Shown piece after piece: positions 28,453 through 41,183 of a stretch of DNA of 64,000 nt (the stretch's first letter is position 1; the number at the start of each line of letters is the position of its first letter). Source of the stretch: Methylophaga sp. GTDB lineage: Bacteria > Pseudomonadota > Gammaproteobacteria > Nitrosococcales > Methylophagaceae. The position numbers and the translations under genes are program-made. The notes beneath the pieces were generated by a model that ran no database searches, was not told the origin of the DNA, and saw only the letters and a program-made list of their open reading frames with translations. Where the stretch lies: assembly GCA_002733105.1 (NCBI GenBank), contig NVUI01000008.1:50507-114506 (forward strand), written 5' to 3'.

Positions 28453-29316
28453 ATGAGATGGCGTAACCGAAGAGTCAGTAGCAATATTGAAGATAAGCGT
28501 TCTCAATCAGTGAGACGACGTGGTGGCAAAAAAGGCGGTATCGGTATCATCGCCATTGCTCTAGTGGCTATGTACTTTGGTGTTGACCCACAAATCGTCA
28601 TGAGTCTAATGGGGGGTGGTTCTACTCAAACAACCACACAAACAGATCCCAATTATCGACCCAGCCCAGAACAGCAAAGATTGGCCCAATTTACTGGTGT
28701 TGTATTAGCAGATACAGAAGATACTTGGCACCCCATATTCCAGCAAATGGGCAAGCGTTACCAAGAACCTAAACTAGTCTTGTTTACCGATACAGTGCGT
28801 TCTGCTTGTGGTCATGCACAAGCAGCCATGGGCCCATTTTATTGCCCCGGAGATAACAAGGTTTATATTGATCTCGGTTTTTACCAGCAATTAAAAAACC
28901 GTCACGATGCACCCGGTGATTTTGCCCAAGCTTATGTCATTGCACATGAAGTTGGTCATCACGTTCAAAATCTACTCGGTACTTCTGGACAAGTTCATCG
29001 TGCCAAACAAAGTGTCAGTGAAACAAAAGGCAATGCCTTATCTGTGATGTTAGAACTGCAAGCCGATTGTTATGCAGGGCTTTGGGCTCACCACACTGAA
29101 AAAGCCAAACAAATATTAGAACAAGGTGATATTGAAGAGGCCCTCACTGCCGCCAGTGCTATTGGTGATGATCGATTACAAAAACAAGCAAGAGGTTATG
29201 CCTCACCAGAATCATTTACTCACGGCACCTCACAACAACGTGTACGTTGGTTTAAAATTGGCTTCAATACCGGTTCAGTACAAAGCTGTAATACATTTGA
29301 AGCGACAAGGTTATAG
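28453..29316 (+). CDS. ypfJ: neutral zinc metallopeptidase YpfJ
   Basis: Colinear with E. coli YpfJ as remembered: MRW..RR.S.N.ED.R, GPFYCP.D..VYIDL.FY, GDFAQ.YVIAHEVGHHVQ, ELQADC.AG.W and SFTHGTSQQR..WF. The size, 287 aa, is the same. Confidence 0.92.
   Translation: MRWRNRRVSSNIEDKRSQSVRRRGGKKGGIGIIAIALVAMYFGVDPQIVMSLMGGGSTQTTTQTDPNYRPSPEQQRLAQFTGVVLADTEDTWHPIFQQMGKRYQEPKLVLFTDTVRSACGHAQAAMGPFYCPGDNKVYIDLGFYQQLKNRHDAPGDFAQAYVIAHEVGHHVQNLLGTSGQVHRAKQSVSETKGNALSVMLELQADCYAGLWAHHTEKAKQILEQGDIEEALTAASAIGDDRLQKQARGYASPESFTHGTSQQRVRWFKIGFNTGSVQSCNTFEATRL
29185..29316 (+). repeat. left copy of a 132-bp direct repeat (functional 3' end of ypfJ)
   Basis: Aligns without gaps to 41052..41183, with about 119/132 identical by hand alignment. 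Confidence 0.85.
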
Positions 29317-29636
29317 GTATTCCTGTTTAAGTCTGGGCAAAATAAAATAACCACTAAGGTAAATTCACAAGCAGTGGCAAACTTTCCACAAAGTAATATC
29401 TGCTCACGCAGGAGTAAAGAGCCCTGATATACCCGGTTACCAATAAAAATACAGCGCTTACTTGCGTCATCTCAGCATCTTCAATGATAGTGCGATTATG
29501 TACAGAGAGCCCGAACTACTACTTAAGTTTCTTAAAGACTGGTGGGCCTCTCACTGCCATAAACACCGTAGAGAATACGCTTGATATTTAAAAGGCTAAA
29601 TTATTAAAGGCCTATCTGCCTGAATATAAGCTGATA

Positions 29637-30974
29637 TTAGGATCCTACTTTATTCAATATTCTAAGTTTTTTGAGATATTTTGATTTTTTTACTTGTTTA
29701 CCCCAAGCGTCATATAGCGTGACTAAATTTTCCAATGCAACTTTAAGTTCTGGTTTCAGTGCACTTGAGACTTCGAGCAATTCGAAGGCCTGTAAAAATA
29801 AAGGTTCTGCTTTCTTATATTGACGCTTGCTATAGAAAATAGCGGCAGCACGAGCCGCTATATTAGATGCTAGCTGTGGTGATTGCTGAAGTTTGTTATG
29901 AAGTTCAACACTTTGTAAATAAAGTTTGAGCGCTTCCTCTTTATTGCCTAGATCTTCTTCAAGACTGCCTAAATTACCCAGTATCAATGCCTGCTCAACA
30001 CTGTTGTCTTGTCCTAATTGATGCAATGTTGTTAACGCTTTTTGATAGAGAGGCTTAGCCTTATCGAATTGTTCTTTTTGTTGATGATCTAGTGCCAATT
30101 CATTAAGATTCATAACGTTTATCAGTGATGGTTTGTCTTGATGCTCCCGAGTCTTGGATGCTTGTACTCGTAGATGGATTGCTGCTGCTTGTTTGTTTTG
30201 TACATCAAGAATTACTGCCAATCGTTCTAGTGTTTCGGCGATACGAACATCATCCATTTTTAGTGTTTTCTGCTCATAACTAAGCTCTTGCTCTAATGCT
30301 TGTTGGGCTAATATTGCTTGTCCTCGTTTCATGTGAGCTTCGGCTAGTGCATAACTAATCTGGCGTATTTTTTCATTGAAAGATGAGGCTAGGTTTTCTT
30401 TTTGATATGTCTCCACAGTACTAGCCACGTCGATAGTAGCTTTGTAATATTGCAATTTATTATTGAGTCTGGTGAGTGCTTGTGCCGTTTTTAAAGCGGC
30501 ATCTCCATGTGTTTTTAGATTCTTACTTTGTATCAACCACGCTGATTGATAGGCTGTGATAGCTTGTCTTTCTTGACCTGATTGCTCCAGGAAATCACCT
30601 TTATTGAATAACATCATAGCTAATTTGGGGTGATCTTTTGCATATAACTGCTCGGCCAGTAGCAAGGCTTGATCAAGCGAGGTTAATGCTTTTTTTTTAT
30701 CACCTTTTGCCATCAGTACAAAGGCTAATAAATTAAGGCTACTGGCTTTAAATTTTAAGCCATTATCTGCTTTGTCAGCCCTAATAATAGCCTGATTAAG
30801 CAATGTTTCAGCATCGTTATAATTGCCCTGCTGATAAAATATTGTTGCTTGTTGCTGATAGTTTTGCCAACTGCTGTCTGCATGTAACAGTGGACTTAAT
30901 AACAGCATAACTAAGGCTGTAGATACCGATCCTAATACCAGTGAAACAGAGGCTGTAAAAAGTGAATGGAACAT
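29637..30974 (-). CDS. secreted/periplasmic tetratricopeptide-repeat protein
   Basis: Hydrophobic signal-like N-terminus (..LLLSPLLHA/DSS) followed by many 34-42-aa TPR-like units (..A..Y.QAL.L....G......A....NLA.....). The start lies 2 nt after the Slam stop. Confidence 0.7.
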   Translation of the reverse strand: MFHSLFTASVSLVLGSVSTALVMLLLSPLLHADSSWQNYQQQATIFYQQGNYNDAETLLNQAIIRADKADNGLKFKASSLNLLAFVLMAKGDKKKALTSLDQALLLAEQLYAKDHPKLAMMLFNKGDFLEQSGQERQAITAYQSAWLIQSKNLKTHGDAALKTAQALTRLNNKLQYYKATIDVASTVETYQKENLASSFNEKIRQISYALAEAHMKRGQAILAQQALEQELSYEQKTLKMDDVRIAETLERLAVILDVQNKQAAAIHLRVQASKTREHQDKPSLINVMNLNELALDHQQKEQFDKAKPLYQKALTTLHQLGQDNSVEQALILGNLGSLEEDLGNKEEALKLYLQSVELHNKLQQSPQLASNIAARAAAIFYSKRQYKKAEPLFLQAFELLEVSSALKPELKVALENLVTLYDAWGKQVKKSKYLKKLRILNKVGS

Positions 30975-30976
30975 GG

Positions 30977-40831: not shown

Positions 40832-40890
40832 TAAAAGAAAATAAGCCGCACTTTTTAGACAATTACTTCACAAGTATACAATATCTAAAT

Positions 40891-40909
40891 GAGAATGAGA
40901 ATGACTTTC
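40891..40909. promoter_or_regulatory. Fur box upstream of the exbB operon
   Basis: gagaatgagaatgactttc matches the Fur 19-mer at about 14/19. It is part of a module duplicated at 49659..49745. Confidence 0.55.
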
Positions 40910-41051
40910 ATTAATATTCATACAATGTACAGTGTCACTCACTTTATAAAGCTTGAATAACATTATTTATCATCCGATAACCATTTCCCAACTTGTTCTA
41001 CAAATCGACTAAAATCAGCTACAATAAATCTGTCCTCTTTTTCTTCAAAAG

Positions 41052-41183
41052 CAAGCAAGAGGTTATGCCTCACCAGAATCATTTACACACGGTACGACAC
41101 AACAACGTGTACGTTGGTTTAAAATTGGCTTCGATACCGGTTCTGCACAAAGTTGTAATACATATGAAGCCATAACGTTATAA
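41052..41183 (+). repeat. right copy of the 132-bp direct repeat (orphan in-frame ypfJ 3' fragment)
   Basis: Translates in the ypfJ frame to QARGYASPESFTHGTTQQRVRWFKIGFDTGSAQSCNTYEAITL*, versus QARGYASPESFTHGTSQQRVRWFKIGFNTGSVQSCNTFEATRL* for the real gene end. Confidence 0.85.

Follow-up and report, generated by a model that had tools for sequence, protein, structure and literature searches.

An 11.7-kb heme and iron uptake block bracketed by copies of the ypfJ 3' end in a Methylophaga genome

How does a block of chromosomal genes come to lie between two copies of the end of one conserved gene, with no recombinase beside it? This question is raised by a window of 64,000 nucleotides of Methylophaga DNA (positions 50507-114506 of contig 16, which is ~130 kb long). 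The window belongs to a 2.06-Mb metagenome-assembled genome (MAG), G000, which is 82.5% complete and in 22 contigs. In it the gene ypfJ is followed by 11.7 kb of heme and iron uptake genes (the cargo, 29317-41043) and then by a second copy of its own 3' end. An earlier note on this DNA took the arrangement for an island that had integrated into the gene and supplied it with a replacement end. That reading is partly supported here: we find good evidence for a lineage-specific insertion, but an island that replaces the 3' end of its target is not supported. We consider it probable, at about 0.55, that a recombinase-independent event placed the block directly behind the ypfJ stop codon and duplicated the host's own gene tail.

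The duplicated gene end and the sites that lack the block

Pairwise alignment and a repeat search show a second copy of 29179-29315 at 41046-41182, aligned over 137 nt with 13 mismatches and no gap. The spacing between the two ypfJ-tail copies is 11,867 and their identity is 90.5% (reported as ~91% by the repeat search). The repeat had been described as 29185..29316 against 41052..41183, gapless and with about 119 matches in 132; it is real and that count is exact, with 13 mismatches, and it reaches 6-9 nt further upstream than was noted. Similarity has a sharp onset inside ypfJ (~29177/41044) and ceases at the stop codon, which is TAG in the left copy and TAA in the right. The sequences outside both boundaries are unrelated to each other. 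The distal copy is the sole other copy genome-wide (BLAST against the 2.06-Mb assembly, E 3.5e-49). As the earlier note had read it, this copy is in frame; it has 6 amino acid changes in 45 codons and no start codon. We placed the joints at 29316/29317 and 41043/41044. The features at the two ends of the block are as follows:

28453..29316, plus strand: intact ypfJ, 287 aa, a putative neutral zinc metallopeptidase (PF04228, Pfam E 2.9e-119)
29177..29316, plus strand: left (proximal) repeat copy, the native, working 3' end of ypfJ (from alignment and polarity)
29317..29636, plus strand: decayed, 5'-truncated relic of a hemerythrin-like gene (tblastn), clearest at 29423-29581 and with a 46-nt DNA match at 29498-29543
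41044..41183, plus strand: right (distal) repeat copy, a displaced and decaying relic of the ypfJ 3' end (from polarity and the lack of a start codon)
41286..41777, plus strand: ybaK-like gene (PF04073, Pfam), the ancestral downstream neighbour of ypfJ

The copies match perfectly over at most 35 nt at a time (29185-29219 and 29231-29265). With identical stretches of this length, RecA-dependent deletion of the block between the repeats is possible but should be rare. Such a deletion would leave a chimeric, full-length ypfJ, and the genome would lose its apparently sole complete TonB system; selection would probably oppose it.

The ypfJ gene of the window is nearest to those of MAGs labelled Methylophagaceae or Methylophaga (91% amino acid identity with L013; several North Pond Methylophaga MAGs reach 81-84%). 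We surveyed ~155 distinct other ypfJ loci, drawn from species genomes and metagenomes. The genes ypfJ and ybaK are syntenic across the genus, in the order ypfJ then ybaK in L014-L018, L130 and L131, and the interval between them varies from 80 bp to 4 kb. It is ~420-450 bp with a small membrane open reading frame (ORF) in L013 and L017, and 1-4 kb among L014-L018, with a cation antiporter-like gene, a GGDEF protein or a peptidoglycan-binding protein. L130 and L131 are truly empty sites, in which the ypfJ stop codon is followed by 80 bp and then ybaK. The earlier note had proposed a comparison of empty and occupied sites, and the block is absent between ypfJ and ybaK at every other Methylophaga locus examined. 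Neither island genes after ypfJ nor a second ypfJ tail were found at any of the ~155 loci. This comparison shows the block to be inserted relative to other species. At 102 bp before ybaK, the distal copy stands where the ancestral ypfJ end is expected.

An irregularity near the same position was seen in the NORP53 assembly, where a second ypfJ (L023:10706-10865) has a one-base insertion and a frameshift ~10 nt inside the left boundary of the repeat. We considered whether this is a related scar and rejected the idea. It is a single-base insertion in a MAG with normal downstream sequence (like L018), and is probably a coincidence, a sequencing error or an unrelated pseudogene.

Descent of the two copies and the probable route of insertion

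We aligned both tail copies with the ypfJ genes of eight outgroup species. The intact copy carries the majority outgroup state at 12 of the 13 differing sites and the distal copy at none, with one site ambiguous. Several of the 6 amino acid changes in the distal copy fall at outgroup-invariant residues (S to T, V to A, F to Y). Identity to L013 is 0.874 for the intact tail, 0.85-0.90 for the neighbouring ypfJ body and 0.793 for the distal copy. Both tail copies also have derived states in common that are absent from L013. Given the polarity, the continuity with the gene body and the shared derived states, both copies descend from the lineage's own ypfJ end, and were essentially identical when duplicated. 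The distal copy has decayed by ~9% (~12 substitutions) since duplication. The intact end thus looks native, the opposite of the classic model in which the end that completes the gene is foreign. The classic model could be rescued only if the tail of the element happened to equal that of the host.

That model is exemplified by prophage e14 and phage 21 at icd of Escherichia coli, where the 3' end of a gene is duplicated around ~15 kb, giving icd and the icdC pseudogene (PMC13626634, citing Hill et al. 1989). As at icd, the copies of the ypfJ end are in direct orientation, the proximal one completes the gene, the distal one is a C-terminal fragment pseudogene, and recombination between them would restore a chimeric gene. 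However, e14 has its own integrase, excises on SOS induction and provides the functional end of icd. Unlike e14, the ypfJ block has no recombinase on its contig, a native-like functional end and a cargo of ordinary chromosomal-type operons. Direct repeats of the target end are the feature that the two loci share; neither a recombinase nor reuse of the site was found at ypfJ, and the copy that completes the gene does not appear to be element-borne, as every polarisable change lies on the distal copy.

In the insertion that we favour, a block made of a Fur-type ExbB-ExbD-ExbD-TonB operon and an operon for a receptor, HphA, Slam and a TPR protein under ECF-sigma/FecR control would have arrived on DNA in which a ypfJ end was already joined to the cargo. 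A close relative with different genes after ypfJ may have supplied it as a fragment, or it may have been a circularised fragment. One homologous exchange would have taken place in the ypfJ tail, and the other end would have been joined illegitimately 137 bp upstream of the stop codon. The pathway would be homology-facilitated illegitimate recombination (linear DNA with one-sided homology) or single-crossover (Campbell-type) integration of a circle. Such an event would duplicate the last ~137 bp of the host ypfJ. The proximal copy would continue to serve ypfJ. The distal one, left in front of its former neighbour ybaK, would lose its function and gather substitutions. If a conserved gene can be followed by two different arrangements, the outer boundary of the repeat would mark the end of the sequence that they share. 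For ypfJ this is the stop codon, and for a DctP gene on contig 8 (described below) it is 27 nt further on. The inner boundary would be the illegitimate joint. As in a footprint of this kind, the duplicated segment is native and one copy remains at the ancestral neighbour.

Homology-facilitated illegitimate recombination and insertion-duplication have been reported before (de Vries & Wackernagel, 2002; Prudhomme et al., 2002; Meier & Wackernagel, 2003; cited in PMC5361080 and PMC3240628). As recounted in the citing papers, a homologous anchor together with an illegitimate joint adds foreign DNA without a dedicated recombinase, and may leave a displaced anchor end, as we propose for ypfJ. In the same accounts these events are rare, with short inserts, and come mainly from laboratory transformation, whereas the insertion here is natural and 12 kb long, its pathway is reconstructed and no donor was identified. 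C-terminal displacement with orphaned 3' ends is described for Rhs and type VI secretion system (T6SS) effector-immunity loci (PMC5361080 and references there). By that description an incoming module recombines on the conserved upstream part, and the old 3' end is pushed downstream and persists as an orphan, which resembles the situation at ypfJ. The displaced ends are given there as variable toxin domains with immunity genes, recurrent at one locus. In contrast, the duplicated end in the window is the tail of a housekeeping-type gene and the cargo is a nutrient-uptake cluster.

The joints bear on the route. The stretch 29317..29636, next to the left repeat, had been described as holding only unrecognisable ORF fragments and had been proposed as a place to look for integrase remnants. 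Six-frame reading, tblastn, Pfam and a homologue search identified a hemerythrin-like relic and nothing else. Positions 29423-29581 correspond to residues 77-130 of a 130-aa protein of another Methylophaga, G018 (tblastn E 2e-7, one in-frame stop), and the 46-nt core is 85% identical to G018 in DNA. The G018 protein scores 24.5 bits against PF01814 (Hemerythrin), just under the cut-off of 25.3. In our own reading of the frame, weaker similarity seems to extend to the ypfJ stop codon; if so, the left joint cuts a hemerythrin-like gene mid-way. A truncated relic at the joint is what would be expected of an illegitimate or pre-existing foreign junction. No intact homologue of the relic is present in the assembly; the nearest intact gene is that of G018, between htpG and yaaA, and a final homologue search with the relic returned nothing. 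Translocation from the htpG-yaaA position was considered and rejected: the orthologous gap in G000 (contig 3, 47.5-47.9 kb) contains another small ORF, for a membrane protein, and lacks any hemerythrin half. At the right joint the ExbB promoter region meets the ypfJ tail in its middle. The two joints do not look like integrase sites, and a recombinase remnant is absent from both.

Pfam, run on every ORF between 25.4 and 45.4 kb of the window, identified no integrase or transposase domain, and none was found on the whole of contig 16. The tRNA and repeat searches gave no tRNA gene in the region and no inverted repeats flanking the block, so these four absences agree with what was first read from the letters. 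Assembly-wide there are 7 matches to PF00589 (tyrosine recombinase), none of them on contig 16, no match to PF00239 (serine recombinase), and one PF00665 rve transposase, at the end of contig 17. The GC content of the block is 0.39-0.40 versus 0.400 for the genome, and its tetranucleotide distance from the genome mean is at the 69th percentile of 400 random windows of the same size. The block is thus indistinguishable from the genome in composition, a result that the earlier note itself had said would count against its island, and the compositional argument for a recent foreign island is removed. ComEC and DprA are encoded in the assembly, but are weak evidence for a recombination route because they are widespread in bacteria.

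Several points weigh against the favoured insertion. No relative among the ~155 ypfJ loci has the donor arrangement (ypfJ, hemerythrin-like gene, cargo) that the one-sided-homology model calls for. An outer boundary exactly at the stop codon would also fit an attP-borne gene end. If an element circulates within one species, its tail could be the same as that of the host, so polarity leaves a site-specific origin possible. The outgroups are 13-30% divergent in the tail segment, which makes the polarity of single synonymous sites noisy. The locus is carried by three assemblies with 100% identical DNA, and thus no within-species variation shows the event or its reversal. We sought an empty site within the species, and the other contigs with identical proteins were 100.000% identical to the window in DNA, i.e., from the same population; a metagenome scan for closer relatives gave matches of at best <=85% amino acid identity. 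Methylophaga is not known to be naturally transformable.

The strongest alternative, which we think unlikely, is a decayed site-specific island. Its attP would have carried the last ~137 bp of ypfJ, and the integrase and other mobility genes would have been lost later, leaving the cargo between attL and attR. Direct repeats that start within a gene and finish exactly at its stop codon suit this origin, as do the coherence of the cargo and the absence of the block from this site in other species. The degraded gene relic shows that sequence has been deleted at the left junction, and two more repeat-bracketed clusters in the genome (see below) could be other decayed elements. Yet the 130-kb contig has neither an integrase nor a remnant of one, and the junction relic is hemerythrin-like. 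None of the 13 differences is derived in the native-like intact copy, and none of the ~155 other loci is occupied or duplicated, so that a replacement end supplied by an island is unsupported. Mobile-element hallmark genes are missing, the composition is that of the genome, and the relatives of the cargo occupy non-mobile contexts. The other two clusters have different target genes (in one of them a 5' end), which would require three integrases that have all been lost.

Local history is a less probable source of the repeat. The ypfJ end, or a second ypfJ paralogue, would have undergone segmental or tandem duplication within the variable ypfJ-ybaK interval, followed by gene turnover, and the cargo would not have arrived together with the repeat. 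Both copies do come from the sequence of the same lineage, the interval varies greatly in length and in the genes that it holds, and two ypfJ genes each are present in the G006 and NORP53 assemblies. However, several precise steps would be needed to give a tail that ends at the stop codon and lies at the ancestral distance from ybaK, and there is no other trace of a duplicated ypfJ body or cargo. It also leaves unexplained the geometry at the DctP gene, where each copy has a different ancestral neighbour. A chimeric join of strain variants, conceivable in a MAG of this completeness and contig number, is very improbable, as the 13 differences between the copies rule out an exact k-mer overlap and both junctions recur without a base difference in separate deposits from ENA and two JGI projects, among them short contigs that cover a single junction each.

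The same geometry at other loci

We regard the recurrence of this scar at other loci of the genome as the most interesting result. Comparison of the whole assembly with itself identified two further cases. On contig 8, a gene for a DctP-type TRAP solute-binding protein is located at 63302-64405 (minus strand). Its last ~156 nt and 27 nt of downstream sequence (63276-63458) recur at 47896-48077 (183 nt, 82.5%, 15.4 kb apart). The genes in between include a sox cluster for thiosulfate oxidation (SoxB, SoxA, SoxY and a SoxC-like molybdoenzyme), as well as rhodanese, thioredoxin-like, MFS, methyltransferase and metallo-beta-lactamase-fold genes and a DUF411 gene. The copies are 84.6% identical to each other, and the intact copy is at most 79.9% identical to any relative. 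The differences comprise 16 derived in the relic, 5 derived in the intact copy and 2 that are ambiguous, and the relic has in-frame stops. The junction is the same in independent assemblies.

Both flanks of the contig-8 cluster have counterparts in relatives. The PAS-GGDEF-EAL sensor gene that adjoins the relic copy in G000 comes immediately after the DctP gene in G018 and G009. In G006 and G002 the gene after DctP, at a distance of ~300 bp, is DUF411, which is the cargo gene beside the relic in G000. This pattern is what one would predict if two alternative arrangements, with a conserved gene as their anchor, had recombined. With both arrangements existing in relatives, the contig-8 case gives the route that we propose for ypfJ indirect support.

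The case on contig 12 is possible but less clear. Here the first ~21 codons of a Ppx-GppA gene and ~72 nt upstream are duplicated (83585-83719 and 99680-99803), with copies 16.1 kb apart, 84% identity and one 12-nt indel. The cargo is of aryl-polyene type (phosphopantetheinyl transferase, AMP-binding/ApeI, two ketosynthases and a methyltransferase), and the relic adjoins a low-molecular-weight phosphatase/ArsC-like gene. We found no relative in which the two flanks are adjacent. No recombinase was identified within ~30 kb of the contig-8 or the contig-12 locus.

From the three loci (ypfJ, DctP and ppx) we suggest, tentatively, that this lineage may repeatedly gain operon clusters beside conserved genes without a recombinase, leaving duplicated ends of 135-185 bp. 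If true, these would be natural, large-scale footprints of one-sided homologous recombination (homology-facilitated illegitimate or Campbell-type), and the repeats might permit rare, precise loss of the cargo. Cluster gain in small marine genomes that are poor in mobile elements is usually inferred from presence and absence. Joints are rarely readable, whereas here both are, and they indicate duplication of host gene sequence, not an integrase site. Displaced gene ends could then mark how such genomes gain clusters. If the signature holds in more genomes, it would be a searchable marker of recombination-driven acquisition, and the decay of the relics would give rough relative dates.

Cargo genes and neighbouring sequence

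All genes of the cargo are on the minus strand. They form two parts, an ExbB-ExbD-ExbD-TonB block and a module with ECF sigma factor, FecR, receptor, HphA hemophore, Slam and TPR protein:

29637..30974, minus strand: TPR protein, 445 aa, last gene of the hemophore operon (Pfam TPR_12 and others)
30977..32470, minus strand: Slam, type 11 secretion outer-membrane protein (PF04575 E 1.7e-52, PF24575)
32550..33311, minus strand: HphA-type hemophore (PF22828 HphA_N E 1.3e-32, PF22829 HphA_C E 3.4e-38)
33406..36519, minus strand: TonB-dependent receptor, 1037 aa, HphR-like, with an N-terminal STN signalling domain (PF07660, PF07715, PF00593)
36661-37611, minus strand: FecR-type anti-sigma factor (PF04773/PF16220)
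37608-38189, minus strand: ECF sigma factor (PF08281/PF04542)
38379-39200, minus strand: TonB (Pfam)
39197-39604, minus strand: ExbD (Pfam)
39607-40050, minus strand: second ExbD (Pfam)
39992-40831, minus strand: ExbB (Pfam)
40832..41043, no strand assigned: region upstream of ExbB with a Fur-box-like promoter module (40888-40960, an 82% match to 49656-49728), ending at the joint with the distal repeat

The four-gene ExbB-ExbD-ExbD-TonB cluster is the only one that genome-wide tblastn found in the assembly. As the block appears to carry the only complete TonB-ExbB-ExbD2 system of the genome, it probably matters to every TonB-dependent uptake process of the organism. The module has Slam with its SlipAM barrel and TPR_Slam domains, an HphA protein with the N- and C-domains known to Pfam and, next to them, a TonB-dependent receptor, which identifies it as a Slam-dependent hemophore cluster. 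Heme binding by the hemophore and its Slam-dependent secretion are predicted from family membership.

Clusters of this kind are known as HsmA-HphA-HphR, e.g., the hemO locus of A. baumannii (PMC8560813; bioRxiv 10.1101/2023.03.29.534853). As in those clusters, Slam, the hemophore and a large TonB-dependent receptor are adjacent. Unlike the A. baumannii locus, the block encodes no inner-membrane heme importer and no heme oxygenase (Pfam identified no heme oxygenase domain in any ORF of the block); a linked heme oxygenase is not defining for the wider HsmA-HphA-HphR family (PMC8560813; bioRxiv 10.1101/2023.03.29.534853). Also unlike the described clusters, the block has its own TonB system, signalling through ECF/FecR and, behind Slam, an extra TPR protein, and its organism is free-living rather than host-associated. 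The Slam-dependent hemophore system is thereby extended to a marine methylotroph.

The six-gene run from sigma factor to TPR protein is kept as a unit in Marinomonas and Marinobacterium (50-70% amino acid identity), in a North Pond organism (L216/NORP60; 58-89%) and, more remotely, in Methylophaga G007 (35-52%). A stand-alone TPR protein of ~430-445 aa directly after Slam is conserved in Marinomonas, Marinobacterium, the North Pond organism and this one Methylophaga. Because the position after Slam is conserved in these organisms, the TPR protein seems to belong regularly to Slam/HphA clusters of this subtype. In L214 (79%) the TonB block stands by itself beside a glycogen phosphorylase gene, and in L215 (70%) ECF sigma and FecR genes come immediately after it. 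No mobile-element genes were identified in the contexts of the nearest cargo relatives, which are ordinary chromosome.

Candidate donors of the cargo were considered and rejected. The genes at its edges have best matches of 79% (ExbB) and 58% (TPR protein) in 5.8 billion proteins, again in ordinary chromosomal contexts, and do not point to a recent donor; a pattern-based ExbB scan of the species genomes gave only matches of <=57%. NORP60 (G041) has the nearest copy of the hemophore module, within an ECF/FecR/receptor array with no ypfJ or TonB block nearby. In six Marinomonas assemblies (L101-L106) the contig ends ~0.9-2.1 kb past the TPR gene of the hemophore cluster, which suggests a repeat or assembly-breaking element just past the cluster in that genus.

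The Fur-box-like modules at 40888-40960 and 49656-49728 have an identical 28-nt core in common. The second is upstream of another STN-type TonB-dependent receptor gene (start 49829). Both modules have the same plus-strand orientation although ExbB is on the minus strand, and the copy at 40.9 kb faces the ypfJ relic and ybaK.

The stretch from 29 to 53 kb is a mosaic of species-specific gene blocks, and no block other than the one after ypfJ has a flanking repeat. At the syntenic position, L014, L015, L016 and L018 lack the region of the second receptor gene (~48845-52694, ~3.85 kb), and the last three also lack an AcrB/MFP pair (42329-46435). A 127-aa ORF at 41829-42212 (minus strand) is made of 33-nt tandem repeats (at least 5 copies, 41854-42068), which also match the syntenic region of L018.

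Two other repeats were seen in the assembly. Contig 9 has ~3.5 kb of internally repetitive sequence (142.4-145.9 kb) with a period of ~60 nt and ~68-69% identity between shifted copies, probably a gene for a giant repeat protein. A 2.8-kb segment occurs at two contig ends (contig 15, 1-2781, and contig 19, 92985-95786) with 90% identity.

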